NCBI GenBank assembly: GCA_029979005.1
Contig: JAPOIJ010000002.1
Span: forward strand, 2,302-66,301
Origin: Planctomycetota bacterium
GTDB taxonomy: Bacteria; Planctomycetota; Planctomycetia; Pirellulales; Pirellulaceae
Direction of reading: 5' to 3'
Length of the DNA: 64,000 nt
Shown: positions 2,691 through 51,893 of the stretch, piece by piece
How the letters are laid out: each line of letters begins with the position of its first letter
Position numbering within the stretch: position 1 is the stretch's first letter
Notes under the pieces: generated by a model
What the model was told of the DNA's origin: nothing
What the model saw: only the letters and a program-made list of their open reading frames with translations
Database searches by the model: none
Position numbers and translations under genes: made by a program

Positions 2691-2709
2691 ATAGGGTAAA
2701 TCTGTTGGT

Positions 2710-2799
2710 GAGTGAGCTCCGCGAGGGGGAGCCGTGAATTGGGTCAGGCCTGAAATATGGAGCAGCCCTAAGCGGGGTACTCTTGTGCGGGGCTCTCTC
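2710..2799 (+). ncRNA. ffs: Signal recognition particle RNA (bacterial small SRP, 4.5S)
   Basis: Helix-8 signature CCGTGAA..GGGTCAGG-CC...GG-AGCAGCCC; closing stem GAGCTCCGC (2714-2722) pairs with GCGGGGCTC (2787-2795); T9 run at 2809-2817; the ffs-dnaX-ybaB-recR order is established in many bacteria. Confidence 0.88.
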
Positions 2800-2997
2800 G
2801 TCCGCAGATTTTTTTTTGCCAGCGTTGCGAAATCGAATTTTTCGGTAATTTTCACAGCGCCAACGGCGTGTTTTTTCGGACACGTTGCAAAGAGTCGCAT
2901 TTCAGCTAGATCGGGACCTACTCGTTGGCCAAGTGAATCGGTTAGAATTGGGGCTCGCCAACGACGCGAGCTCATTTCTACGGCCAATGGTTTTGTG

Positions 2998-4911
2998 ATG
3001 AATTCACCTTCGCCCACCGATGACGGACAATATAAAGTTGTCGCACTTAAATACCGCCCCCAATTGTTTGGAGAGTTGGTTGGGCAAAGTCACATTGCGA
3101 CCGCATTATCGAATGCGATTGACAAGAATCGCGTTGGTCATGCGTATCTGTTCACAGGTGCCCGCGGGGTTGGGAAAACCTCGTCAGCGCGAATTTTTGC
3201 AAAGTGTCTTAATTGTGTTGAGGGGCCAACAAAAACTCCTTGCGGGAAATGTGGTATTTGCGAAGCCGTTTCTGCTGGTGACGATGTTGATGTTCTGGAA
3301 ATTGACGGTGCGAGCAACCGGGGAATCGACGAGATTCGTTTGTTGCGATCCAATGCATCCGTTCGCCCCAGTCGTTGTAGGTATAAAATCTATATCATCG
3401 ACGAAGTGCACATGTTAACGATGCAAGCTTTTAATGCGCTGCTTAAGACGCTTGAAGAACCTCCGCCGCATGTCAAATTTATCTTTTGCACGACAGATCC
3501 TCAGAAGATACCGATTACGGTTTTATCGCGTTGTCAACGATTTGATTTTTCACCTGTTCAGACGAATGAAATCTCCAACCGCCTGTCCGAGATCGCAGCG
3601 AATGAGGGGGTGACTGCCGACGAACAAGCGTTGGCTTTGTTGGCTCGCCGTGCTAATGGATCTATGCGAGACAGTCAGTCATTACTTGAGCAACTTTTCT
3701 CGTTTTGCGGGAACTCTATTTCAGTGCAAGAAGTTCATGAGCTACTTGGCACTGCGGATATGGGCAGAATCGCTGAGATCTCAACTGCGATGGTAAATGC
3801 AGATCCCATGACTGCACTGAATTTAATCCATCATGGAATTACCGACGGTGTCGATGCTGGGCAAATGGCGGATCAGTTGCTGGGGTATTTCAGAGACATG
3901 ATGGTCGCGAGTGTCGATTGCAGTCCTGATACTTTTTTGAATTGCAGTGAAGCGGATCTTGAGCATTTGAAAACACTTTCCGATGCGATTGGTCTGGAAA
4001 CAATACTTACGATCGTACAGTTGCTTGATTCGGCAGTGGTTCGGATGCAGTCAAGCCTGCACGGACGGACGTTGCTGGAAGCGGCTGTGGTACGGGTTTG
4101 TAATCTCGAAAAACTGGAAGCCATTGCTGATTTGGTCGATCAGTTATCAGACCCCAAAAACAGCAAGGGTGCTGCAGTAAAGGCGCCGCGACAACGCGTT
4201 GAAATGAGACGAGTCGAAACCTCCGGGACGGTTGGTCAGGCGGCTCTAAAAAAAAACGAAATAGCACCTGATCCGGCTCCACAGTCGACAACGAGTGTGG
4301 CTGGCGAAACAGTGGCTCAAGATGATTCTGCAGCAAAACCGCCGGGCGGAGAGGTGTTGGAAGATGCGGGGATTGCCAAGGTAGGTAATGCTAACGTTTC
4401 TCCCGAACCAAAGGCGACGGGCATTCCGGAGATTCCGAGTGGAAGTCACGTTGCCAATGACTTGCCGAAAGCAGGCGGTGAAATAGTTTCCCCAACGGAT
4501 TCTCATTCGACGGATGCAGATGTTAGCTCGATCGAAGCGCGTTGGAAAACTGTTCTCGAAACGATGGGGGATATGACTGCCGAAATGGCCTCCAATTATG
4601 AATCGGTCGAACTTAAAGGGGCGGATCAGCTTTTGGTCACCTTGCGGGACAAGGCGAGTCGAGATCTCTGTATGAAGCCGGATCGTCGCAGTCGTTTTGA
4701 AGAAGCATTTGAAAAGGTAACCGATCGAACGGTTCGTGTTGAGTTTTTGGTTTCTCAAAACGTGATTGAAAGTCCGGCTCCGAAGCCTAAACTTACCCGT
4801 GCACAGCAGGTAAGGAAATTGCAAGATGTCGAATTGGTGAAACAGGCCATGGAATTATTTGATGCAGAAATAACAGGGTTTCGTGAACCTATGCCGTCGA
4901 AAAAGCGTTGA
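2998..4911 (+). CDS. dnaX: DNA polymerase III subunit gamma/tau
   Basis: YKVVALKYRPQ, Walker A GARGVGKT, zinc module C..C, IIDEVHML, SRCQRF. Start set at ATG 2998 because the longer ORF from 2734 overlaps the SRP RNA. Confidence 0.97.
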   Translation: MNSPSPTDDGQYKVVALKYRPQLFGELVGQSHIATALSNAIDKNRVGHAYLFTGARGVGKTSSARIFAKCLNCVEGPTKTPCGKCGICEAVSAGDDVDVLEIDGASNRGIDEIRLLRSNASVRPSRCRYKIYIIDEVHMLTMQAFNALLKTLEEPPPHVKFIFCTTDPQKIPITVLSRCQRFDFSPVQTNEISNRLSEIAANEGVTADEQALALLARRANGSMRDSQSLLEQLFSFCGNSISVQEVHELLGTADMGRIAEISTAMVNADPMTALNLIHHGITDGVDAGQMADQLLGYFRDMMVASVDCSPDTFLNCSEADLEHLKTLSDAIGLETILTIVQLLDSAVVRMQSSLHGRTLLEAAVVRVCNLEKLEAIADLVDQLSDPKNSKGAAVKAPRQRVEMRRVETSGTVGQAALKKNEIAPDPAPQSTTSVAGETVAQDDSAAKPPGGEVLEDAGIAKVGNANVSPEPKATGIPEIPSGSHVANDLPKAGGEIVSPTDSHSTDADVSSIEARWKTVLETMGDMTAEMASNYESVELKGADQLLVTLRDKASRDLCMKPDRRSRFEEAFEKVTDRTVRVEFLVSQNVIESPAPKPKLTRAQQVRKLQDVELVKQAMELFDAEITGFREPMPSKKR

Positions 4912-6474: not shown

Positions 6475-7980
6475 ATGAAAATATCGTTCGGTCAAAATCT
6501 ATCGCAAAAGCAAACCCAAAAACTGGCTCCTCGGATGATCCAGTCGATGGAGATTTTGCAGATGGCGCAAGCCGCGTTGGATGAAAAGATCGAACAGGAA
6601 TTGATTGAGAATCCTGCGCTCGAGCGAGCGGATGAGTCGACGACGAATGAGGACGCATCCAAAAACACGTTGGATGTTGAGAAGGAAACCAAGGATGTCG
6701 AACAGAAGGAATTGGTTGTCGATGAAGACAAGGGCGGCGAGGATGATTTTGAGCGGTTGTTAAATCTCGACAAGGACATTCCCGATCATTTTGACGAAAG
6801 CACACGCCCTTCCTCAAATCGGATTCAGGAGAGTGGAGATCGACAGCACGATTTGATTGCGAACATTGTTGATCGTGGCGAGACGCTTCAGAATCACTTG
6901 AATGCACAGTTACACGAGATGGATCTGGCTCCTGATCTGCTGAAGATGTGTGAGAGAATCGTTTCGTCTCTTTCGGCGAAAGACGGTGGCTATTTAAAAG
7001 TCTCGCTCAATGACCTTTTGCCGCCAAATAGTGGCCCAGACGATCTTGAGTTGGCGGAAGAGGCATTAGCTCATGTTCAGCAATTGGATCCCGCCGGTGT
7101 TGGAGCGCGAGATCTTTGTGAATGCTTATTGCTTCAGCTTACATCTGATATCACGAATCTGAAAAATGTTAGAACACTGATCGTCAACCACCTCGAAGAT
7201 CTGCAGCATAACCGCATGCCTCAGATCGAGAAGGCAACTGGTTTGACGATTGAAGAAATCAAAGATGCCTGGGATGAATTAAAAAGGCTTGACCCAAGAC
7301 CGGCCAGCCGGTTTGCTGACGACTTTGTGCCTACGGTGACACCGGATATGTGGCTTGAAGTAGGTGAAGATGGTGAGTACACCGTCAAAATGGAGGAGGG
7401 GCCGACACGTAATCTTTACATTAGCAATTACTATAGGCAGCGCTTGACCAATGGTCAGGCTACTGCCGAAGAAAAGGAATTCATTAAGAGGAAAGTGACT
7501 GCCGCACACTGGTTGATCGAATCCATTGAACAGCGGCGAAATACGTTAACTCGGGTTGCTCAGGAAATTGTAAATCATCAAAAAGCTTACTTTGATGACG
7601 GTCCTGAATTTTTGCGCCCGCTCAAGATGGAGCAAATTGCCGAGAAGGTAGGCGTTGCCGTCACCACGGTTAGTCGTGCTGTAGATCAGAAGTGGATTGA
7701 GACTCATCGTGGCATCCTGCCGTTGCGGATGTTCTTTATGGGGGGAACGACAACCGACGATGGTGAAGACGTTGCCTGGAATAAGATCCGTATTGAACTT
7801 CAAAAATTGATTGACGGCGAAGATAAGTCAAAACCGTACAGTGACGAAGAAATCATGCAGCTTCTGAAAAATCAAGGTTTCGCAGTCGCTCGCCGAACGG
7901 TGTCCAAGTATCGCGAAAAGCTTTCGATTCCAAGTTCTCGCCAGCGGCGAGATTGGACTAAAAAGAAGAAAGACAAATAG
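6475..7980 (+). CDS. rpoN: RNA polymerase sigma-54 factor
   Basis: Q-rich region I (QKLAPRMIQSMEILQM), DPAGVGARDLCECLLLQL, HTH TTVSRAV, RpoN box ARRTVSKYRE. Confidence 0.97.
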   Translation: MKISFGQNLSQKQTQKLAPRMIQSMEILQMAQAALDEKIEQELIENPALERADESTTNEDASKNTLDVEKETKDVEQKELVVDEDKGGEDDFERLLNLDKDIPDHFDESTRPSSNRIQESGDRQHDLIANIVDRGETLQNHLNAQLHEMDLAPDLLKMCERIVSSLSAKDGGYLKVSLNDLLPPNSGPDDLELAEEALAHVQQLDPAGVGARDLCECLLLQLTSDITNLKNVRTLIVNHLEDLQHNRMPQIEKATGLTIEEIKDAWDELKRLDPRPASRFADDFVPTVTPDMWLEVGEDGEYTVKMEEGPTRNLYISNYYRQRLTNGQATAEEKEFIKRKVTAAHWLIESIEQRRNTLTRVAQEIVNHQKAYFDDGPEFLRPLKMEQIAEKVGVAVTTVSRAVDQKWIETHRGILPLRMFFMGGTTTDDGEDVAWNKIRIELQKLIDGEDKSKPYSDEEIMQLLKNQGFAVARRTVSKYREKLSIPSSRQRRDWTKKKKDK

Positions 7981-43292: not shown

Positions 43293-44195
43293 TCAACTAT
43301 TTTGGTCGAAGAGACTGTCATTGTAAGCGAATACAGAAACTCCGAGTTTTTCCGCGACACGAATCGTTTCGTTCTGCTCAAGTATAATCGTGCGATCGGC
43401 TTCGATTGCAAGAACGCTTCCACCCTCGTGGGCAATGGTTTCAATGGTACCAACTCCAATGGTCGGTACATCGAACCGCATGTCTTGGTTCGGTTTGGAT
43501 ACCTTAACCACCGTAAACCCACCGGAGCAAAGGTTCCCGGCTCTGGCAATACACTGATCGGTTCCTTCGATGGCTTCGACAGCCAACACTGCTTGATTTT
43601 TAACGACGACGGTTTGCCCAATATCTAAGGCTCCCATTGCTTTGGCCATTTGCCAGCCGAATCGAATGTCCTTTAATTGGCTGTTGTTGGGTTGGTTCTT
43701 TGTCAGCGGCCCTGCTTTCACCAGTAACTCCGGAGCAAAATCAGTTGCGGGGGAAAATGTGATTCCTTCTGATTTGTACAATTCAACGACTGTGCTGAGG
43801 AGAGTGTCGTCCCGACGATCTTTCGATTTTGAAAGAATGATTGGGTAGAAATGTCGCCAAAATACCAAATCAGGAAAGTGCGTTATCAAGCTGGATTTTT
43901 TTTGAAACAGAAGCGTTTTGAATATTTTGCCAGCCATGGTGGCGTGTGCCACCCCCGCTTTGCGGAAAAAACGGCACTGGCCACCCATACGTGCCATGCC
44001 AAATACACGATAAGACGTGCAAATATCTTTTAACACAGGGTCGGCATGGTCTTTAATTCCCGTGCAGTGAACTTCGTAGCCCTGAGCCATTAGCGTCCGT
44101 GCGATGCAGACAGGGAAATGCCCCCAGCCTGCGACCAAGCCGATTTTTTTGGTTGCGAGGTTAGCTAAATTGGTATCTTGAGTTACTGTGGCCAT
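43293..44195 (-). CDS. lpxI: LpxI family UDP-2,3-diacylglucosamine diphosphatase
   Basis: IGLVAGWGHFP, LDIGQTVVV, LAVEAIEGTD, KPNQDMRFDVPTIG. Confidence 0.92.
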   Translation of the reverse strand: MATVTQDTNLANLATKKIGLVAGWGHFPVCIARTLMAQGYEVHCTGIKDHADPVLKDICTSYRVFGMARMGGQCRFFRKAGVAHATMAGKIFKTLLFQKKSSLITHFPDLVFWRHFYPIILSKSKDRRDDTLLSTVVELYKSEGITFSPATDFAPELLVKAGPLTKNQPNNSQLKDIRFGWQMAKAMGALDIGQTVVVKNQAVLAVEAIEGTDQCIARAGNLCSGGFTVVKVSKPNQDMRFDVPTIGVGTIETIAHEGGSVLAIEADRTIILEQNETIRVAEKLGVSVFAYNDSLFDQNS

Positions 44196-44221
44196 GGGGA
44201 ATTTTTAGGCGGAGATAAAGA

Positions 44222-45268
44222 CTAGGCAGCTCGTGATCCGTTGTCTTCAGAATCATTTAATTGATCAAGTTGCTTGGATAGCTTTTTGACCGTTCGCCGG
44301 AGTTCTGGAAGTTTGGAAGTAACCGCCTGAATTTGCATTTCTGTTCTTGCTGGCCTCGCGGGAATTCCGAAAATTCGCTGATTGCTTTCAACATCGTGCA
44401 TTAAGCCAGACTTTGCACCGATCGAAACATGCGAACCGATATTCAGGTGGTCGGCCAGCCCAACTTGTCCGCCCATAATAACGTAGTCGCCTGTTGAACA
44501 ACTTCCAGCAATACCAACTTGCGAGCAAAGCAGGTTGTGTTCTCCAATCATGCAATTATGCCCTACCATCACCAAATTATCGATTTTGGTTCCTGCGCCG
44601 ATTAGGGTTGAATCGTAGGTGCCACGATCGATGGTCGTGTTTGCTCCAATTTCCACGTCTTCGGCAATGATCACATTGCCAATTTGGGCGGAGAGAACAT
44701 GACGTCCTGTGTTGGACTGGTAGCCAAATCCAAAAGCCCCCAGCACCACACCGGCGTGAAGAATGGAACGGTCGCCCACGATCGTATTTTCATAGAGTAC
44801 CGAATTGGGAAAGACCTGAACATCTTCACCTAAGATGCAGTTTTCCATGATCGTGACGTTGGGGTAAATGATTGTGCCCGAGCCAATCTGGACGTTATCC
44901 ATGATGACTGCCCCGGGATGGACGCAGGCTTGCTCGTGAATCATGGCGCTGGGACTGACGATTGCCTGATCGCTGACACCTGTCTGAGTACGTTTTACCG
45001 TTGGTTTAAATCGCTCGGCAATCTCAACAAAAGCCTGGGTAACATCTTCCACGATCAGGCAAGCCTTTTCGGGGGGATCGACGTCGAATCCAATAACGGC
45101 TGCAAGTGCGGGGCTCTTTAAGAAGTCTTCGTAATATTTGGGGCTGGAGACGAACGTAATATCGTGCGCTGTCGCTCGCGAGATTGATGCTGCCCCAGAA
45201 ATTTCGAGGTCTGGGTTCTTTGTTAAACGCCCACCAATTATTTTGGTGAGCTCGCCTAAAAGCATCAT
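44222..45268 (-). CDS. lpxD: UDP-3-O-(3-hydroxyacyl)glucosamine N-acyltransferase
   Basis: Hexapeptide repeats, GAFGFGY, VEIGANTTIDRG, KIDNLVMVGHN, SQVGIAGS. Confidence 0.96.
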   Translation of the reverse strand: MMLLGELTKIIGGRLTKNPDLEISGAASISRATAHDITFVSSPKYYEDFLKSPALAAVIGFDVDPPEKACLIVEDVTQAFVEIAERFKPTVKRTQTGVSDQAIVSPSAMIHEQACVHPGAVIMDNVQIGSGTIIYPNVTIMENCILGEDVQVFPNSVLYENTIVGDRSILHAGVVLGAFGFGYQSNTGRHVLSAQIGNVIIAEDVEIGANTTIDRGTYDSTLIGAGTKIDNLVMVGHNCMIGEHNLLCSQVGIAGSCSTGDYVIMGGQVGLADHLNIGSHVSIGAKSGLMHDVESNQRIFGIPARPARTEMQIQAVTSKLPELRRTVKKLSKQLDQLNDSEDNGSRAA

Positions 45269-45548: not shown

Positions 45549-46817
45549 TTACGAAACCAACTCTTTAATGACCTTGCCGCCGTTGGCGATTTTCATTGGT
45601 CGGCCACTTTGGCTGGTAAAGGTTGTTTCGAGTGATATTCCAAGTGAGTGGCAAACGGTCGCCATCAGATCTTCTGAGGATTGTGAAGGCCCGACAACAC
45701 TGGTGCCGTCCTCATTGGTCGCACCAACAGCGATACCGGAATTCATGCCTGCACCTCCGACAACTGCACTCCAGCTTCTTGCCCAGTGGTCACGTCCGGT
45801 GTTGCCGTTAATCCGGGGGGTTCGACTGAATTCTCCCATCCAGATCACTGCAACATCGTCGAGCATGTCACGTGCTGCCAAGTCTTCCATTAAGGCACTC
45901 ATTCCACGATCAAGCTCAGGGAGTTTATTGTTTTGGAGAGTTTGGAAGATGTTTTGGTGGTTATCCCAACCGCCAAGGCCAACTTCTACGAAAGGCACGC
46001 CCGACTCGACCAAACGGCGAGCCATCAAGCAGCCCCGTCCGAAATTAGTCTGACCGTAGCGTTCCTGAACGGATTCGGGCTCCTGCATGACCTTAAACGC
46101 TTTCATTTGTTCGCTGGTCATGAGGCTGAGAGTCTTGCTGAGAACCTTTGCGTGCTCGCCAGCGGCAATTCCACGGTTGGAATCAATGAAACCAGACTCC
46201 ATCATTTTGAGAGCCTGCATTCGCTGAGTCAGTCGATCCGGTTCGATTCCCATGTCTAGGTTGCGAACTTGTCCGTTTGAATTGACGGAGAACGGAGCCC
46301 ATGCCATGCCGAGAAATCCCGGGCCTTCGCTGTTACCGCCGACGGAAACAAAAGGTGGAATTTCAAGATCTTCTCGAGTTGACGAAAGTTCGTGGGCAAT
46401 CACAGAGCCATAACTCGGGTGCTTCACGTTTGGATTTGGCACGTAGCCGGTGTGCATGTAGTAACGGCCACGCATGTGGTCCGCTTCACGGGTGCTCATT
46501 GATCGCACGATTGAGAGCTTATCCATGTTCTTTGCCATCATGGGCATGTGCTCACAAATCTGCACATCTCCCGCGGTTGAAATTGGACGGAATGGCCCGC
46601 CGTTGTTGGAGCCGGGTTTGAGATCCCAAATGTCCATGGTAGACGGTCCGCCGCCCATCCAGAGTAAGATTGCAGCCTTCTTATTTTTCTTGAGTTGTTT
46701 CGTACTTGCCTTGAGTGTATTGCCCAGCGCAAGTGCGGTACCGGTCATCGCGGAGGCACCTGCGAGGTGACGCATGAAGTGGCGTCGGTTCATGCCCTGG
46801 GGTGTTTTGAAGTTCAT
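45549..46817 (-). CDS. DUF1501 domain protein with Tat signal
   Basis: MNRRHFM, LLWMGGGPSTMDIWDLKP, FGRGCLMARRLVESGVPFVEV..GGWDNH, MGEFSRTPRIN..GRDHW. Confidence 0.93.
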   Translation of the reverse strand: MNFKTPQGMNRRHFMRHLAGASAMTGTALALGNTLKASTKQLKKNKKAAILLWMGGGPSTMDIWDLKPGSNNGGPFRPISTAGDVQICEHMPMMAKNMDKLSIVRSMSTREADHMRGRYYMHTGYVPNPNVKHPSYGSVIAHELSSTREDLEIPPFVSVGGNSEGPGFLGMAWAPFSVNSNGQVRNLDMGIEPDRLTQRMQALKMMESGFIDSNRGIAAGEHAKVLSKTLSLMTSEQMKAFKVMQEPESVQERYGQTNFGRGCLMARRLVESGVPFVEVGLGGWDNHQNIFQTLQNNKLPELDRGMSALMEDLAARDMLDDVAVIWMGEFSRTPRINGNTGRDHWARSWSAVVGGAGMNSGIAVGATNEDGTSVVGPSQSSEDLMATVCHSLGISLETTFTSQSGRPMKIANGGKVIKELVS

Positions 46818-46919: not shown

Positions 46920-48626
46920 TTAGTGATTAAAAATGAACTCGTTCGTGTTAAGTATTACCCACCAAACGTCTCGAAGTGCCTCTTTCGGGTCTCCGTTTCT
47001 AGCTTTCAGGAACTGTTTAGCTAGGTTCTTTTCGTCGTTTTTAGGTTTTCTAGTCAGGCCAGCTATGAATAGCTGCTCAACAGATTGCGAATAGTTTTTG
47101 CCTGATTTCGCAAGGTTGTCGATCAGACTTCCTTTCTTGGTGTCGATGGCCTGTTTGACCATGTCTCCATTGAACAGCATCAATACCTGTGGAATCGTGC
47201 CATTGAAACTCGTCGATTCCTGACCTTCGTCTGTGCCAAAGGCTTGATTGAATTGGCCAAGCCATGTGTTTTTCTTGCGCTCCCGCTCTTCGTAACTTCC
47301 TTGCAATTCGATCGCTTCGGTGGCGACCATCATCGATTCGTAAAGTTGTTCGGCTTCCATTTGGCGAAGATAGAAATGTGAAAATTTCGGTGATTCACCA
47401 AGTAGCGGATCGTCACTTTGGTTGCTCGATGTACGCTTGCTCGAGAGACTGTAGGGTTTGCTTAAAGCAACCCAGGAGATGAGTTTCCGGAAGTCAAATT
47501 CAGCACGTCGAAATTCTTCCGAGAGGAACTCAAGTAATTCGGGGTTGGAAGGAATGTTGTGCGGTCCAAGGTCATCAACGGGAGCCGTAAATCCATAACC
47601 TAGGAAGTGTGCCCACATTCGATTAACGATGGAACGTGTCATGAAAGGCGAGGCAACCATCATCTTGGCAAGTTCGACTCGTCGGTTCACGACGTTAACT
47701 AGTCCGCTTCGTTCAATTTCGCTGCCGTCAACAAACACCGGATAGGCAACCTTGCTGAGGCCATTTCGCATTTCGAAAAAGATCTCTGACTTGCCTTGGC
47801 TTTCACCTCGAAAGTCCTGATCGGCCAGTTGAGCGACTCCGCCATCTCTCGGGCGGGCTCCACCCGGGAAGGCTCGTACCTGGCGAAAGAATGCATTCAT
47901 TTCCCAGTACTTTTGTTGCTTCCAGTCGTTAAACGGGTGGTTGTGACACTGGGTGCACTGAACCTGCAGGCCGAGAAAAATCTTTGTCGTTGCTGCCGTA
48001 GCGAGCGATGCCTTTTCCTCGTTTACCTTGTCGATGAGGAAGTTGGTCGCGCCATTGAATTTCTCATCACCCGGGGTCGTTGAACCGGTAGCCGTGACCA
48101 ATTCGTACACCATTTTGTCGTAGGGTTTCTCGCGAGCGAACGAATCCCGCAAATACTTTTGCATTCCGGGTCGGCTAATCATCGAATTGTTATCGTTTCC
48201 GCCAGTGCGACCAATTAATAGATTGGTCCAAACCGTCGTCCAGTTCCTTGCGAATTCTTCCGTGTAGGAATCATCGTAAAGTAGTTTTTCAACTAGTTTT
48301 TTCTTTTTATCGGAGTCGCGAGACTCCATGAATTCCATTGCCTCATCGTATGAAGGAACGCGTCCGATGATGTCTAGGTAAACACGTCGACACCACTCTC
48401 CGTCGGTTGCTTCTTTTGAAGGCTTTAGCTCATAGTCCGTCCAGACTTGCTCCACCAGTTTATTGATTTGGAGAACCGTCGAATCGGTATCGGAATTGGA
48501 TGGCGTCCTAAAAGAAACCTGAGAAGTTTGAGCGGGCAAGCTTGGAGCGAAGCTGAGAATCAAAATTGCCGAACAAAAAAAGCTCGCTGTGGTTAACCAA
48601 TTGTTCGTCTCGAACTGCTTGCCCAT
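46920..48626 (-). CDS. DUF1549/DUF1553 (PSCyt2/PSD1) domain exported protein
   Basis: EWCRRVYLDIIGRVP, FLGLQVQCTQCHNHPF, VNRMWAHFLGYG, NPELLEFL, LNTNEFIFNH. Confidence 0.93.
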   Translation of the reverse strand: MGKQFETNNWLTTASFFCSAILILSFAPSLPAQTSQVSFRTPSNSDTDSTVLQINKLVEQVWTDYELKPSKEATDGEWCRRVYLDIIGRVPSYDEAMEFMESRDSDKKKKLVEKLLYDDSYTEEFARNWTTVWTNLLIGRTGGNDNNSMISRPGMQKYLRDSFAREKPYDKMVYELVTATGSTTPGDEKFNGATNFLIDKVNEEKASLATAATTKIFLGLQVQCTQCHNHPFNDWKQQKYWEMNAFFRQVRAFPGGARPRDGGVAQLADQDFRGESQGKSEIFFEMRNGLSKVAYPVFVDGSEIERSGLVNVVNRRVELAKMMVASPFMTRSIVNRMWAHFLGYGFTAPVDDLGPHNIPSNPELLEFLSEEFRRAEFDFRKLISWVALSKPYSLSSKRTSSNQSDDPLLGESPKFSHFYLRQMEAEQLYESMMVATEAIELQGSYEERERKKNTWLGQFNQAFGTDEGQESTSFNGTIPQVLMLFNGDMVKQAIDTKKGSLIDNLAKSGKNYSQSVEQLFIAGLTRKPKNDEKNLAKQFLKARNGDPKEALRDVWWVILNTNEFIFNH

Positions 48627-48851
48627 TGATTGTCCCTGGTGGTGGATTTGTGTTGTAAGGCCAGCAAAGGTCCGCTTTTATTCCAAACGGAAACCCTCAC
48701 TAAAAATATTACGTTATTTTAGACTAAGCTCTGTTTTCCGTTCAACTTGAGTGTTTTAAAATTGAACATTTGTATCGTTTTGGTGTATCGAAATCGAACA
48801 ATTTGGGGAAGCCTTAGCTCTCTCGTTTTTGTCGTTCTGCCTCAATATCCA

Positions 48852-48894
48852 AGAAAAATGGCCTAGACTGCTCGAAAAAGTGAGCAGTCTAGGC
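48852..48894 (-). terminator. Strong intrinsic terminator in the intergenic region
   Basis: Perfect 13-bp inverted repeat GCCTAGACTGCTC (48861-48873) / GAGCAGTCTAGGC (48882-48894), followed on the minus strand by CATTTTTCTT. Confidence 0.75.
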
Positions 48895-48955
48895 ACTGCC
48901 TCGTCTCTTTTCGCCAAAAGCAGGAGTTAAACAACTCTTGGCGAACCACTTCCAA
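48852..48955 (-). ncRNA. Candidate sigma-54-dependent small RNA or attenuated leader (about 100 nt)
   Basis: Lies between a consensus sigma-54 promoter and a terminator; internal stem TTCGCCAA..GAGTT/AACTC..TTGGCGAA. Ends are inferred. Confidence 0.45.
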
Positions 48956-48965
48956 TTCACAGTAA

Positions 48966-48981
48966 AGCAATCTATGTGCCA
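48966..48981 (-). promoter_or_regulatory. Sigma-54 (-24/-12) promoter
   Basis: Minus strand reads TGGCAC-ATAGA-TTGCT, an exact match to TGGCAC-N5-TTGCW, in a 646 bp intergenic region. Confidence 0.72.
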
Positions 48982-49272
48982 AATTTAACTAGACTGCCTG
49001 GGTGTATATTGGAAGTAGTAAATGGTTTGTTTTTAAGTCGATTGTCGCCGAACAGGTTAAAAACCATATTTTTCGGTCGTTTTATAGCTGGCGACGTTCG
49101 CGGTCTCACAAAATTTCTATTTGTGTTTCATGGAAAGATACTACATAAGACGGCTCTCAGCGCGTCGAAAATCAAAAATATAAGGTTGTAACCATGAATT
49201 TATAGGATTGAAGGTCTTGTTGGTTGCTACCGTGTTGGTTTGTGGGACAAACCTTTCGTCTAATACTAGGCT

Positions 49273-49779
49273 TTAAGAGATTTTCTTGAGTCCGAGTGAT
49301 CTGCGTTTCGTATTCACCATCGCGATTGCTTGAGGGTTGCGTTTGATGAATTTTACTAACTGGGAGGTTGAGCAACCGAGAGTCTGCGCTGCTGCGGCGG
49401 GGTTAAAACCTTCGAAATGGAGAAAATCGAGTGCTTCAGCCAGTAATGCTGGAAAATCAGAGTGTTTGTTGCTGACCTCTATTTTCTTGTTCTTTAGACG
49501 AGAGTTCCAAAGTTCGCTCGGCGTTGATTTTTCTGTTTTGTCCAGTCGAAAGGCAATGGCCAGATTGGTTTTTAATCTGCTCATTGCCACGGTTTTGTTT
49601 TTGTTTTGGCTTCTTGCCTCGCTGGCTTGGCCGATAATTCCCGTGGGTGTGTGTGTAATTACGATGGCGGTTTCAACTTTGTTTCGGTGTTGTCCACCCG
49701 GTCCACTTCCCCGGGTGCGCTGGACCGTGCAATCCTTGAGGAGCGATAGATCGGATTGGCTTGCGGGATGTTGGCACAC
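49273..49779 (-). CDS. Peptide chain release factor-like protein (GGQ domain with C-terminal HTH-like module)
   Basis: RGSGPGGQHRNKVETAIVITHTPTGI...SEARSQNKNK; no codon-recognition domain; C-terminal AAAQTLGCSTSQLVKF. Confidence 0.88.
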   Translation of the reverse strand: MCQHPASQSDLSLLKDCTVQRTRGSGPGGQHRNKVETAIVITHTPTGIIGQASEARSQNKNKTVAMSRLKTNLAIAFRLDKTEKSTPSELWNSRLKNKKIEVSNKHSDFPALLAEALDFLHFEGFNPAAAAQTLGCSTSQLVKFIKRNPQAIAMVNTKRRSLGLKKIS

Positions 49780-50093: not shown

Positions 50094-51893
50094 ATGGCGC
50101 TTGAAAAAATTGGCCCGTACGAATTCAAAGGTGTTCTAGGTCGTGGCGGAATGGGGTCGGTATTCCGTGGGGTTCACGAAGATACTGGCGAGGTGCACGC
50201 GGTCAAAGTCCTGGCTCCCAACTATGCGAACGACGAGCATTTTCGCGGCAGGTTTGAGGCTGAAATTGAATCGCTCTTAAAGCTGAACCACCGAAATATT
50301 GTCCGGATTTTAAGTTTCGGACAAGAAGACGGGATGTTGTTCTTTTCCATGGAGTTGGTCGAGGGCAATAGCCTTTTTCAGATGCAGAAAAGTGGTTATC
50401 GGTTTGACTGGCGATCTGTATTGCGGGTTGTAAAAGACGTCAGTGCCGGTTTGAGGCACGCTCATGATCGGGGAATTATCCACCGGGATCTTAAGCCGGG
50501 TAATTTGTTGATGACCTACGACGAGAATTCGCAACCTGATTTCGTAAAGATTACCGATTTTGGAATTGCGAAACGGTTCGGTTCATCTCAGAACACTGGG
50601 CAAAATGTTTTGGGGACGATGGATTTCATGAGTCCGGAGCAAGCAAAGGGTGAGTTGGTCACGATTCGGAGTGATCTCTACAGTCTTGGTTCGGTGATGT
50701 ACGCACTGCTGTCAGGTAAGCCTCCATTTCGAACGAATTCAGTAGAAGGGTCATTGAGCAATCTCTTGCGGGCGCCCGTTCCGAGTATTTCGGCTTCGTT
50801 ACCTGAGGTGCCGGCTGAGATCGATCAATTGATACGTCGTCTAATGGCGAAGCGACCGGAGGATCGAATTCCGACTTCACTGGCGTTAGCGCATCAAATC
50901 GAAGAGGTCGAGTCGATTTTACGGGAGAGCAGTGAAGCGAGAACGACCCATCGTCCTGAGGGAAAAAGGCATGTCGATACTTTCGATGTTGGAATTCCAG
51001 CAACGCGTGAAAATACGGGACGGGCTGATGAGAAGAACGCAATTGGAAAAGCCAGTGTTGTAAATTCTGATATGCAAACGGTTGAGTTCACGGATCATAA
51101 GAGCCAGCAAATTGATACCATGCCCGTGCGGGAGGATTATTTTGAAACCGTTACGGAAAAGACCAGAGAGCAACCTTATGTAGCCGACTTTGAGCCAAGA
51201 GAAAGCAAAGGCTTTTGGCGGTTGCTCTTAGCTTTTTTGTTTGTGATTGCGATCAGCGTCTATGGCGTTTGGCAAGCTTACAAACCGCCAAGTGCTGAAG
51301 AACTTTATACGGCAATCGAGCTTGGGGCGAACAAACCGGATTCGGTGATGATTGAAATCAACCAATTTCTCGAGCTTTATCCTGACGAGGAACGTGCTGA
51401 GCAAGTTGCGGAATTGGGGCGTGTGGGGGAAGCAATCAAGCTTTACAAAAGCCGTCGAAATTTTTTGACTGCCAAAGGTTCATCTCGACTGACTGACATT
51501 GAACAGCGGTTTCTGCGTATTGTCGAAAGAGCGGACAAAAATCCAATCGAGGCAAACAAAGAAATGGATGTTTTCGTCAATTTTCTTAGCGGCGTTGAAT
51601 TAGAACCGCGTGACCAGGAATGTTTCGAAGCAGCTGTCGCTTACCGAATTAAAATTAAACACGATGCGTTGAGTGAGTTGCGCGGAAATCTGAATCGTAT
51701 TCGATCTGTGCTCGACACTGCGCTGCAGACGACAGATGTCGACGAACAGATCAGACTGTATAGGTCAATTATCAGTTATTCAAAAGACATTGATTGGGGG
51801 CGGTTCCCAGATTCACGGCAAGGAACCGACATGGTTCAAAAGGCGCAACGAATGTTGTTGCAACTTGAGTCGAGCCATCCTGAGTCCTTTTAG
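50094..51893 (+). CDS. Membrane-anchored Hanks-type Ser/Thr protein kinase
   Basis: LGRGGMGSVF, AVKVL, HRDLKPGN, DFGIAK, FMSPEQ, SDLYSLG; one TM helix (FWRLLLAFLFVIAISVYGVW) and a helical C-terminal domain. Confidence 0.95.
   Translation: MALEKIGPYEFKGVLGRGGMGSVFRGVHEDTGEVHAVKVLAPNYANDEHFRGRFEAEIESLLKLNHRNIVRILSFGQEDGMLFFSMELVEGNSLFQMQKSGYRFDWRSVLRVVKDVSAGLRHAHDRGIIHRDLKPGNLLMTYDENSQPDFVKITDFGIAKRFGSSQNTGQNVLGTMDFMSPEQAKGELVTIRSDLYSLGSVMYALLSGKPPFRTNSVEGSLSNLLRAPVPSISASLPEVPAEIDQLIRRLMAKRPEDRIPTSLALAHQIEEVESILRESSEARTTHRPEGKRHVDTFDVGIPATRENTGRADEKNAIGKASVVNSDMQTVEFTDHKSQQIDTMPVREDYFETVTEKTREQPYVADFEPRESKGFWRLLLAFLFVIAISVYGVWQAYKPPSAEELYTAIELGANKPDSVMIEINQFLELYPDEERAEQVAELGRVGEAIKLYKSRRNFLTAKGSSRLTDIEQRFLRIVERADKNPIEANKEMDVFVNFLSGVELEPRDQECFEAAVAYRIKIKHDALSELRGNLNRIRSVLDTALQTTDVDEQIRLYRSIISYSKDIDWGRFPDSRQGTDMVQKAQRMLLQLESSHPESF

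Follow-up and report, generated by a model that had tools for sequence, protein, structure and literature searches.

Architecture of the locus

The window analyzed here is a stretch of 64,000 nucleotides from a contig of a planctomycete of the family Pirellulaceae, and the region of interest is the intergenic space upstream of a DUF1549/1553-DUF1501 gene pair, read on the minus strand. Following a gene for an RF-1-domain protein, it holds a site of the sigma-54 type, a short 5′ motif, two hairpins (P1 and P2) joined by a purine-rich linker, a U-rich tail, a conserved AT-rich block and a candidate sigma-70-like promoter. These elements, together with the rpoN gene of the window, are given below with the basis for each in brackets.

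49273..49779, minus: gene for an RF-1-domain protein (Pfam)
48966..48981, minus: sigma-54 type promoter TGGCAC-ATAGA-TTGCT, the sole exact match in the window (sequence)
48981..48976, minus: TGGCAC, followed by the spacer ATAGA and by TTGCT at 48970..48966 (sequence)
48980..48979 and 48968..48967, minus: the -24 GG and the -12 GC (sequence)
48955, minus: predicted transcription start, 12 nt past the C of the -12 GC (promoter geometry)
48851..48955, minus: structured RNA, about 105 nt in the window's clade (covariance model match and fold z)
48946..48953, minus: 5′ motif GGAAGUGG, nearly identical to the GAAGAGG motif (invariant columns in a 58-sequence alignment)
48910..48945, minus: hairpin P1, TTCGCCAAGAG...CTTTTGGCGAA (sequence, folding, compensatory changes)
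48895..48909, minus: purine-rich single-stranded linker AAGAGACGAGGCAGU, the family core motif (invariant columns)
48861..48894, minus: hairpin P2, a perfect 13-bp stem (terminator scan, covariation)
48851..48860, minus: U-rich tail CAUUUUUCUU, present in the window's clade only (terminator scan)
48801..48850, minus: degenerate remnant of the P3 terminator region of relatives (aligned by eye with relatives)
48751..48800, minus: AT-rich block TGTTCGATTTCGATACACCAAAACGATACAAATGTTCAATTTTAAAACAC (conserved after the terminator in both subfamilies)
48716..48745, minus: sigma-70-like promoter candidate TTGAAC-18-TAAAAT, proximal to the DUF1549/1553 gene (sequence scan)
46920..48626, minus: DUF1549 (PSCyt2) and DUF1553 (PSD1) protein, 568 aa, the usual downstream neighbour (Pfam)
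45549..46817, minus: DUF1501 protein, 422 aa, second gene of the pair (Pfam; synteny)
6475..7980, plus: rpoN, the sigma-54 factor (Pfam Sigma54_AID, Sigma54_CBD and Sigma54_DBD)

Hairpin P2 consists of GCCTAGACTGCTC, the loop ACTTTTTC and GAGCAGTCTAGGC, followed by CATTTTTCTT at 48860..48851 on the minus strand, and eight of its 13 pairs are G-C in the terminator scan. The RNA is single-copy in the window (covariance model match 48850..48955, minus strand, 87.3 bits, E = 2e-20), as is the AT-rich block. A first-pass annotation made from the letters alone had described most of this arrangement: its TGGCAC-N5-TTGCT at 48981 to 48966 is correct to the base, its first stem-loop is P1 at 48945..48910, its perfect 13-bp hairpin with a T-rich tail is found at 48894..48851 and the tail ends, as it stated, 225 nt before the ATG at 48626. 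Likewise, rpoN lies in the window as it had noted, and its failure to recognise a described RNA family agrees with the Rfam search reported below.

A reading frame from GUG to UAG, of 29 codons with the stop and 28 residues without it, can be traced through the window RNA. We rejected it as a small protein: the length of P1 varies between copies (34, 35, 36, 37, 38, 39 and on to 58 nt) and hence the frame is not conserved.

A conserved promoter of the sigma-54 type

The window site agrees with the sigma-54 consensus TGGCAC-N5-TTGCW, in which the GG lies at -24 and the GC at -12, and the host encodes the factor, with the AID, CBD and DBD domains all present in the rpoN product. Taken by itself in one window, the promoter motif is not significant: an exact TGGCAC-N5-TTGC occurs once as against 0.18 expected and at least once in 17 of 100 shuffles, and when one mismatch is allowed there are three matches as against 3.9 expected. 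Across relatives, the GG and the TGC are invariant and in register (GG-N10-GC) in 85–86 of 86 distinct Pirellulaceae copies with a freely varying spacer, and 72 of the 86 retain the strict form TGGCAY-N5-TTGC. The distance from the C of the -12 GC to GGAAGUGG is 13–14 nt in 69 of 72 copies. When loci are instead collected via the DUF1549/1553 orthologue, the motif, with at most one mismatch, is upstream of the gene in 59 of 72, most of the remainder being loci that lack upstream sequence. From the geometry of this promoter class, in which transcription begins some 11–13 nt beyond the -12 GC, a start near 48955 is predicted.

No conserved upstream enhancer was found in the region from -330 to -28 of 78 copies, where k-mer sharing stays at background level and the commonest 7-mer occurs in 19 of them. 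A scan of the window and of the 152 loci L001–L152 for exact matches to the GAFTGA loop, to ESELFGH and to a Walker A pattern, which a divergent activator could escape, likewise yielded no activator gene. A copy of GCAGTCTAG, which matches the 3′ arm of P2, stands at 48997..48989, just upstream of the -24 element. L001 retains it and L006 retains part of it; it is absent from L002, L003, L004, L005 and L017, and was treated as a chance occurrence.

Structure, covariation and invariant single strands

The window RNA folds with z = -5.4, none of 200 shuffles folding equally well, and the RNA of locus L058 reaches z = -8.8. In the alignment, 96.3% of cells are paired as compared to 81.8% in shuffles, and changes on both sides of a pair number 219 cells as against 54, a count that none of 500 shuffles attains; controls with a slid register pair at 33–51%. 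Compensatory changes are seen at all 13 pairs of P2, of whose cells 97% are paired, and, in P1, at the innermost three of the pairs modelled. Each of 82 distinct P1 segments folds with at least 10 pairs, at a mean of -18.5 kcal/mol as compared to -6.9 for shuffled segments, with GNRA tetraloops in 35 of the 82. Thus, the -24/-12 motif and both hairpins are conserved in relatives, an expectation on which the first-pass annotation had staked its proposal.

Between these helices, the linker contains the invariant columns GAGACGAGG-A in the 58-sequence alignment, and in all about 20 nt of unpaired sequence are invariant across genomes whose downstream proteins are 58–99% identical. We regard the conservation of the whole arrangement in relatives as the decisive evidence and, on comparative sequence grounds, the spot flagged by the first-pass annotation as a genuine structured RNA gene with a sigma-54 promoter that has not been described before.

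Distribution, subfamilies and genomic context

The RNA family is found in about 100 marine and soil planctomycete genomes of the Pirellulales, and a complete chromosome of 6.2 Mb (L073) contains its pattern a single time. About 90% of the copies precede, in the same orientation, a DUF1549/1553-DUF1501 pair, which often adjoins lpxD and lpxI; the promoter lies 111–785 nt from the ATG and the downstream DUF1549/1553 protein is only 45–60% identical across some of the RNA-bearing genomes. Such placement before the same gene pair is also what a cis-acting leader would be expected to show.

Nine copies lack a detectable DUF1549 orthologue, namely six loci with a genuine RNA copy and promoter (L077, L084, L085, L090, L102 and L145) and three loci of a diverged subfamily. 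The next gene is convergent in five of the six, those long enough to read, L077 being a contig of only 1.3 kb. Further, complete units of promoter, RNA and terminator are triplicated in tandem in L030 and duplicated in L135. The RNA has its own promoter and terminator and in some genomes occurs independently of the downstream genes, as a small RNA gene does.

The diverged subfamily is present in the cultured Blastopirellula marina DSM 3645 and Bremerella sp. JC770. It retains the promoter and the core motif where the rest of the RNA has diverged, and each RNA carries two to three copies of a GGGGYCGG-N5-7-GAAGAGGC unit, so that the core AGAGAAGAGGC is repeated two to three times. Its RNAs hold 40 GAMGAGG motifs in 6.2 kb, a density of 6.5 per kb as compared to 0.13 per kb in the remainder of these loci. 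The search pattern itself demanded the first motif in every RNA; the 18 others alone amount to 2.9 per kb. In L166 and L167 these motifs lie in hairpin loops. The window RNA has one full motif unit and the near copy GGAAGUGG, and reads GGCGAAAAGAG where most relatives have a second GGA. One full unit and one near copy make a weak case for a sponge.

Terminators and the region downstream

A GC-rich hairpin followed by a U-tract, the layout of an intrinsic terminator, is provided by P2 in the window and by a third hairpin, P3, in relatives. The first-pass annotation had taken the 13-bp hairpin for the terminator of an RNA of roughly 100 nt, which would hold for the window's clade but not for most relatives, where termination is predicted at P3 and the RNA would be about 165 nt or longer. 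P2 is a conserved structural helix of the family, with a terminator-like role in the window's clade only: this clade has lost P3 and gained a U-tail on P2, at the position of which other clades have GCAAUUAUU, and no terminator-like hairpin was found in it at 48801..48850. P3 stems, 7–18 bp long and differing in sequence, are followed by UUUUAUUUU in at least 52 of 78 copies.

The AT-rich block follows the terminator in both subfamilies, including in copies without a nearby DUF1549 gene. The orientation of its repeats, direct or inverted, depends on the species: the second half is inverted in 20 of 50 copies and direct in 17 of 50. Given these counts, its interpretation as a simple conserved RNA hairpin is unsupported. 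We treat it as an enhancer candidate only. Closer to the gene, a sigma-70-like promoter may lie at 48716..48745, the hexamers of which are, as judged by eye, kept in L002, L004 and L005.

Transcription

In 12 metatranscriptomes, the region from 48300 to at least 48958 is covered at 4–85× and the upstream gene at 2–5×. These figures come from Logan contigs, not reads; the contigs are unstranded and of flat depth, so that a coverage step is invisible in them. The contigs end upstream at 48943, 48958 (two runs), 48993, 48997, 49035, 49058, 49064 and 49114, and the interval 49115–49165 has zero RNA coverage in 12 of 12 runs. The region is therefore transcribed, with coverage running on into the gene, and the contigs do not fix the start site. 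Six of the twelve reach 40–160 nt upstream of the predicted start (48993–49114), and a further upstream promoter or an antisense transcript is a possible source of those extending beyond 48955.

The contigs for the window's species are continuous from the RNA through 48851 into the DUF1549/1553 coding sequence, and a discrete transcript of about 100 nt is not seen among them, an observation that runs against a small RNA. In a species resembling L021, the only contigs, two of 151 and 189 nt at about 3×, cover the RNA and not the gene. No reads were found for an L007-type relative in four metatranscriptomes.

Searches for known families and targets

Searched with the Rfam covariance models, the RNA and its surroundings in the window, in L058 and in L167 yield nothing at gathering score; the highest-scoring hits are unrelated miRNA and snoRNA models far below threshold, and the literature searched holds nothing resembling the family. 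Duplexes between the RNA and 50 gene starts of the window average -14.8 kcal/mol (sd 2.7); the strongest reaches -21.9 kcal/mol, and none stands above background. Pairing of the core with the downstream 5′ UTR was rejected, as CCUCUUC-type sites complementary to it are not enriched in the downstream 5′ UTRs (0.12 as against 0.10 per kb background).

A proposed small RNA gene with read-through, and its alternatives

The first-pass annotation had left a choice between a stand-alone small RNA and a terminating leader. Both are possible, and the evidence leans towards the former: we propose, with a probability of about 0.6, that the locus is a gene for a small structured RNA which depends on sigma-54 and whose terminator is partially read through. 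In this proposal, sigma-54 RNA polymerase would wait as a closed complex at TGGCAC-N5-TTGCT, to be opened by an AAA+ activator whose gene lies elsewhere in the genome, with transcription beginning about 12 nt past the -12 GC. The RNA would consist of the invariant 5′ GGAAGUGG, P1, the invariant purine-rich single strand AGAGACGAGGCAG and P2. It would end at P2 and its U-tract in the window's clade, at about 100 nt, and in most relatives would continue through an AU-rich spacer to the canonical terminator P3, giving about 165 nt, or 220–260 nt in Blastopirellula and Bremerella.

The working parts of such an RNA might be the exposed purine-rich GA(A/C)G(A/U)GG motifs, of which the window RNA displays one to two and RNAs of the diverged subfamily two to three, some of them in hairpin loops. 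We posit that they bind a partner in trans. An RNA-binding protein, titrated as by a sponge RNA, appears likelier in this role than a pyrimidine-rich segment of an mRNA. Some polymerases would pass the terminator into DUF1549/1553-DUF1501, which probably has its own promoter too.

A cis-acting leader is the chief alternative and a distinctly less probable one. Here, the sigma-54 promoter would drive the DUF1549/1553-DUF1501 operon, and the RNA would set passage through the terminator (P2 in the window, P3 in relatives) via a protein or small ligand that binds the invariant purine-rich stretch, in the way of a riboswitch or of protein-mediated antitermination. The co-oriented position of about 90% of the copies before the same pair, despite the divergence of the encoded proteins, and the persistence of promoter and core motif in copies whose remaining RNA has diverged are both consistent with such a leader. 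So are the contigs that cross the terminator uninterrupted and the combination of invariant unpaired nucleotides, covarying helices and a terminator, which is the usual layout of an aptamer with its expression platform. Against it stand the nine genuine copies without DUF1549 downstream, several of which face a convergent gene, and the tandem duplication of complete units, promoter included. Moreover, inspection of the alignments revealed no conserved competitor of the P2 or P3 stem, a long stretch of widely differing length separates the terminator from the ATG, and a sigma-70-like promoter candidate is available close to the gene.

A sigma-54 promoter followed by nothing more than a long structured 5′ UTR, whose hairpins would stabilize the mRNA with neither a separate RNA nor a regulatory decision, is an improbable reading of the locus. 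Continuous coverage from the RNA into the gene and the conservation of the promoter upstream of the gene pair fit this idea, but it leaves unexplained a canonical GC-rich hairpin with a U-tract conserved in mid-UTR, unpaired nucleotides that stay invariant while the proteins vary, the stand-alone and tandem copies and the L021-like species in which the RNA is covered and the gene is not. A last reading combines a chance motif match, which the 17% of shuffles with an exact match would allow in the window alone, with a hairpin serving only as the terminator of the RF-1-like gene, a role which the first-pass annotation had named as fatal to its proposal. It is refuted by the comparative data, as the whole arrangement recurs with covariation in about 100 genomes independently of the upstream gene. 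The 380 nt between the end of the RF-1-like gene and the hairpin and the uncovered interval at 49115–49165 also speak against it.

Comparison with known sigma-54-dependent and structured RNAs

The Qrr1-5 RNAs of Vibrio are small RNAs dependent on sigma-54 and LuxO. Like them, the small RNA proposed here would be about 100 nt in length, would be transcribed from a -24/-12 promoter of its own and would combine a few hairpins with a conserved stretch of single strand and an intrinsic terminator. Its copy number likewise varies among species, as in the tandem copies of L030 and L135. However, there is no similarity in sequence or structure and no Rfam match. The Qrr seed contains pyrimidines and acts with Hfq, whereas the conserved segment here is purine-rich, and qrr1 adjoins the activator gene luxO, whereas the exact-motif scan found no activator gene near this RNA.

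CrcZ and CrcY of Pseudomonas depend on sigma-54 and CbrB and, with CsrB, RsmY and RsmZ, are protein-titrating RNAs. They share with the diverged subfamily a short purine-rich motif that is repeated (here in two to three units) and unpaired or in loops. The motif differs, being GA(A/C)G(A/U)GG rather than the A-rich motif of CrcZ or the GGA bound by CsrA/RsmA, and its repeats are far fewer, with only one to two in the window RNA. GlmY of Enterobacteria depends on sigma-54 and GlrR and acts by protein binding; along with Pxr of Myxococcus it offers a parallel as a sigma-54-driven RNA of 100–200 nt with stem-loops that is restricted to a single lineage, though without homology and in another phylum and genomic context.

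SreA and SreB of Listeria are riboswitch-derived RNAs, that is, terminated leaders that double as small RNAs. The present RNA resembles them as a structured RNA upstream of a gene with a terminator and read-through, and could by the same token act both in cis and in trans. It differs in that no antiterminator pairing was seen by inspection and in having stand-alone copies, and a sigma-54 promoter would be unusual for leaders of this type.

Implications for planctomycete biology

Planctomycetes have large genomes with many sigma-54 activators and dozens of DUF1549/1553-DUF1501 pairs, whose function is enigmatic. The literature searched describes no regulatory RNA and no sigma-54 regulon for Planctomycetota, and we know of none. 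As a more speculative extension, which we hold only tentatively, the RNA could be the first riboregulator described in this phylum: a sigma-54-controlled decoy titrating an RNA-binding translational regulator and thereby controlling a regulon that includes the expanded DUF1549/1553-DUF1501 pairs, with the AT-rich block as an unusual downstream enhancer. The exposed GA(A/C)G(A/U)GG motifs resemble Shine-Dalgarno sequences.

The locus offers a first handle on sigma-54 and RNA-based regulation in Planctomycetota, in the form of a defined sigma-54 promoter, a covarying RNA with a short invariant motif and an association with one DUF1549/1553-DUF1501 pair. Its presence in the cultured Blastopirellula marina DSM 3645 and Bremerella sp. 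JC770 makes it directly testable, and it may thus serve as an entry point both to what sigma-54 senses in planctomycetes and to the purpose of the DUF1549/1553-DUF1501 pair.

Conservation of the RNA and its promoter

The first-pass annotation had read a promoter motif, a stem-loop, a 13-bp hairpin and a T-rich tail on the minus strand, all of which proved exact by sequence reading and a terminator scan. The locus and its neighbours are laid out as follows (L numbers denote homologous loci in other genomes).

Features of the locus and its surroundings
48981..48966 (-), sigma-54-type promoter TGGCAC-ATAGA-TTGCT (sequence reading)
48953..48946 (-), 5′ motif GGAAGTGG, 12 nt after the promoter motif
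48945..48910 (-), stem-loop P1, 36 nt (sequence reading)
48909..48895 (-), purine-rich linker AAGAGACGAGGCAGT (sequence reading)
48894..48861 (-), hairpin P2, perfect 13-bp stem, 8 of 13 pairs G-C (terminator scan)
48860..48851 (-), tail CATTTTTCTT, directly 3′ of P2
48800..48751 (-), AT-rich block, consensus GATACAnCAAAATTGAACAnnTGTTCAATTTTGAAACAC, 40-50 bp, directly 3′ of the terminator
46920..48626 (-), DUF1549+DUF1553 gene, downstream flank of the RNA
45549..46817 (-), DUF1501 gene, followed by lpxD and lpxI
43293..45268 (-), lpxD and lpxI, 3′ of DUF1501
49273..49779 (-), RF-1-domain protein gene (ArfB-like, 168 aa), upstream neighbour of the RNA
50094..51893 (+), Ser/Thr protein kinase gene, divergent from the RF-1-domain gene
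6475..7980 (+), rpoN, within the window

The window is from Mariniblastus, in the family Pirellulaceae, and a DUF1549/1553 protein search gathered 72 related loci (55-99% protein identity), all from metagenome-assembled genomes of Mariniblastus, other Pirellulaceae or less precisely labelled planctomycetes. The -24/-12 motif (at most one mismatch) is present in 59 of the 72, 111-785 nt (median 359) 5′ of the start codon; at the remaining loci the contig mostly has no upstream sequence. From 13-14 nt past the TTGC, the motif-anchored loci share a conserved block comprising GGAAGUGG, a variable hairpin, GGCGGAAYAGAGACGAGGCAGUGCC, a second variable hairpin and GGCC. Scanning 185,579 species genomes for the exact pattern GGAAGTGG-N32-60-AGAGACGAGGCAG recovered at least 80 stretches; among the matches listed, 76 are genuine copies on planctomycete contigs, and the 4 found in other phyla lack both promoter and structure. 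One genuine copy is on a 1.3-kb contig (L077) binned, probably wrongly, as Hyphomonas; a complete 6.2-Mb chromosome (L073) carries a single copy. The window itself holds a single copy by covariance-model search, at 48850..48955(-) (87 bits, E = 2e-20). The initial impression that this is not a described RNA family is borne out by Rfam, whose covariance models match neither the window-type RNA nor the diverged subfamily described below, and the literature searched contained nothing on such an RNA. We conclude that this RNA family is genuine and new, and that its promoter is of sigma-54 type.

Taken by itself in the window, the promoter motif is not significant: the exact form occurs once against 0.18 expected, with at least one in 17% of shuffles, and the one-mismatch form three times against 3.9 expected. 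Its weight comes from the homologous copies, in which it stands in register: among 86 distinct copies the GG and the TGC are each found in 85-86, strict TGGCAY-N5-TTGC in 72 (the others deviating almost solely in the first T of TTGC), and the five spacer positions vary freely. Moreover, the -12 C lies 13 or 14 nt from GGAAGUGG in 69 of 72 copies. Two conserved blocks, a free spacer and a fixed distance to the transcript start together form the signature of a protein-recognised promoter, and this conservation identifies it as one of sigma-54 type with a predicted start at about 48955. A motif scan of the window and loci L001-L152 found no activator gene near the RNA, and no conserved site was found upstream of the promoter among the homologous copies. 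Some sigma-54 activators, such as the chlamydial CtcC of the same PVC superphylum, have no DNA-binding domain; hence, a missing upstream enhancer is no objection. Just 5′ of the -24 element, GCAGTCTAG at 48989..48997 (-) repeats the 3′ arm of P2, probably by chance; L001 retains it, L006 does so in part, and L002-L005 and L017 lack it.

Structure and termination

The window RNA folds far better than its shuffles (z = -5.4). A MAFFT alignment of 58 sequences, unfitted to any structure, gave an RNAalifold consensus of P1 plus P2, in which 96.3% of cells are paired as against 81.8% in shuffles and 219 cells are changed on both sides as against 54, a value reached by 0 of 500 shuffles; with the partners shifted by 1-3 columns, pairing falls to 33-51%. 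Covariation in relatives extends to both hairpins, with compensatory changes in all 13 P2 pairs and the three innermost modelled P1 base pairs. The P1 interior is variable in length, yet each of the 82 distinct versions forms 10 or more pairs (mean -18.5 versus -6.9 kcal/mol for shuffles), and GNRA tetraloops cap 35 of them. The alignment shows no variation in GGAAGU-G, at the 5′ end of the RNA, or in GAGACGAGG-A, within the linker. The comparative evidence thus indicates that the RNA structure is conserved and real. A coding reading is excluded, as P1 changes length by non-multiples of three.

Past P2, most species have GCAAUUAUU, then an AU-rich spacer, then P3, a GC-rich hairpin between an A-tract and UUUUAUUUU. 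P3 is a canonical intrinsic terminator, with perfect 7-18 bp stems of many different sequences in at least 52 of 78 copies; in L058 the three-hairpin fold reaches z = -8.8. The clade comprising the window, L001-L006 and L017 has lost P3 by decay, and its P2 carries a U-tail instead (48801..48860 (-) compared with L007-L016); the RNA would accordingly measure about 100 nt within this clade and about 165 nt outside it. The proposal of a roughly 100 nt RNA terminated by the 13-bp hairpin therefore fits this clade, but not most relatives, where P3 would terminate.

The AT-rich block always lies directly past the terminator, in both subfamilies and in stand-alone copies, even without DUF1549 (L030 3860..3895; L021 3700..3737; past the terminators of L176 and L170). 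It is unique within the window. Of 50 copies, 20 have the second half as an inverted repeat and 17 as a direct one. Candidate roles are those of a downstream enhancer or operator, of a promoter element, or of a segment belonging to a longer form of the RNA.

A diverged subfamily with repeated motifs

More distant orthologous loci retain the promoter and the core GAACAGAGAAGAGG. A second scan, for TGGCAY-N5-TTGC-N39-69-AACWGAGMAGAGG, returned 29 stretches, of which about 22 are genuine; these are all from Pirellulales, including a Lacipirellulaceae genome and the cultured Blastopirellula marina DSM 3645 (L167) and Bremerella sp. JC770 (L166). In 18 of the approximately 22 a DUF1549/1553 orthologue, usually with DUF1501, starts roughly 400-850 nt past the promoter. 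These RNAs run for about 220-260 nt up to a P3-type terminator and display two or three GGGGYCGG-N5-7-GAAGAGGC units spaced about 30 nt apart. GAMGAGG occurs in them 40 times in 6.2 kb, i.e., 6.5 per kb (2.9 per kb without the motif that the search pattern required) versus 0.13 per kb in the remainder of those loci, and in L166 and L167 it sits in hairpin loops. The window RNA has one full unit (GGCGAAAAGAGACGAGGCAG) and a near copy, GGAAGUGG.

Transcription

The RNA region is transcribed. Contigs from 12 metatranscriptomes containing the window's species carry no strand information and give depth as a flat average; hence, they reveal read-through or overlap without showing how extensive it is. 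On the upstream side they end at 48828, 48878, 48926, 48943, 48958 (twice), 48993, 48997, 49035, 49058, 49064 and 49114; 49115-49165 has zero coverage in all 12, and the RF-1-like gene has a depth of 2-5x versus 4-85x for the RNA region. Together these place the start of transcription within 160 nt around the promoter, which is compatible with, though not proof of, a start at 48955. The start near that position is predicted from the promoter geometry; two contigs end at 48958 and six reach further upstream, so that part of the signal stems from upstream sequence or from the opposite strand. These six, likewise unstranded, extend 40-160 nt 5′ of the predicted start (48993-49114), and the signal over 48960..49114 could reflect an additional start site further 5′, transcription of the plus strand, or sparse reads that lengthened the assembled contigs. 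For an L021-like species only the RNA is covered, by two contigs of low depth (151 and 189 nt), one of which spans P3 and the AT-rich block; no contig lies over the DUF1549/1553 gene.

Independent gene or leader

A small RNA gene in its own right, with partial read-through, is the more likely reading, and a leader of DUF1549/1553-DUF1501 the less likely but serious alternative. A leader would account for the approximately 90% of copies that precede this same pair and for the unbroken contigs running from the RNA into the coding sequence in the 12 metatranscriptomes. Against it stand nine copies that have promoter and terminator yet no DUF1549 gene detected downstream, and tandem copies of complete promoter-RNA-terminator units. 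Six of the former, genuine copies with a promoter, belong to one clade (L077, L084, L085, L090, L102, L145), and three to the diverged subfamily (L158, L170, L176). In five of the six the next gene is convergent, the 1.3-kb contig of L077 being too short to judge: in L145 it encodes an HtrA/DegP-like protease (Pfam), in L085, L090 and L102 homologues of that protease (485-513 aa, by N-terminal sequence), and in L084 a protein of 1112 aa whose sole match, to UDPGP, is weak. In the clade with the convergent protease, a Cys/Gly-rich lipoprotein-like gene lies divergently upstream of the RNA; in L176 the next ORF is transposase-like in appearance. As for the tandem copies, a Mariniblastus contig (L030 3071..3900, also carrying L118) has the promoter-RNA-P3 unit triplicated with a period of about 283 nt (copies 94-100% identical; AT-rich block after the last unit only), and L135, from another genome, has two promoter-RNA-terminator units 239 nt apart, the second broken by a run of N. 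Thus, in some lineages the RNA is genomically independent of DUF1549/1553.

An independent gene is also favoured by the conserved terminator after the RNA, by the long and variable promoter-to-ATG distance (111-785 nt) and by a candidate proximal sigma-70-type promoter that might serve DUF1549/1553 itself: TTGAAC-18-TAAAAT at 48745..48716 (-) in the window's clade, and TTTCGGTAACAATAG, which about a dozen further loci, L007, L008, L012 and L072 among them, conserve 60-80 nt 5′ of the ATG.

The RF-1-domain gene and divergent Ser/Thr kinase also lie upstream of the RNA in L083, L094-L099, L111, L117, L120, L122, L129 and L137; this neighbourhood typifies many Mariniblastus-type loci and is absent from more distant ones. 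On the other flank, lpxD follows DUF1501 in L073, L087, L114, L119, L120, L126, L128, L137, L143 and L144 (in the window with lpxI), placing the pair in a conserved core-genome, cell-envelope neighbourhood. Elsewhere in the window, a bacterial small SRP RNA (2708..2806 (+), 44.5 bits, above the gathering score) lies directly upstream of dnaX (ORF called at 2734..4911 (+)); as the called start at 2734 overlaps it, the true dnaX start codon is probably further downstream.

Proposed function

We propose that an AAA+ activator would turn the promoter on and that the RNA would end at its terminator and work via its GA(A/C)G(A/U)GG motifs. These are purine-rich and Shine-Dalgarno-like, invariant and exposed, and repeated in the diverged subfamily; no site complementary to them was found in the downstream UTRs, and none stands out in the window. 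Hence, we speculatively favour decoy-like protein binding over antisense pairing. A fraction of transcripts would continue into DUF1549/1553-DUF1501, which would link the RNA to that gene pair. As sigma-54-dependent small RNAs are known in Proteobacteria, the RNA is ordinary in kind; it is new in sequence, structure, phylum and context, and the family is testable in cultured strains.
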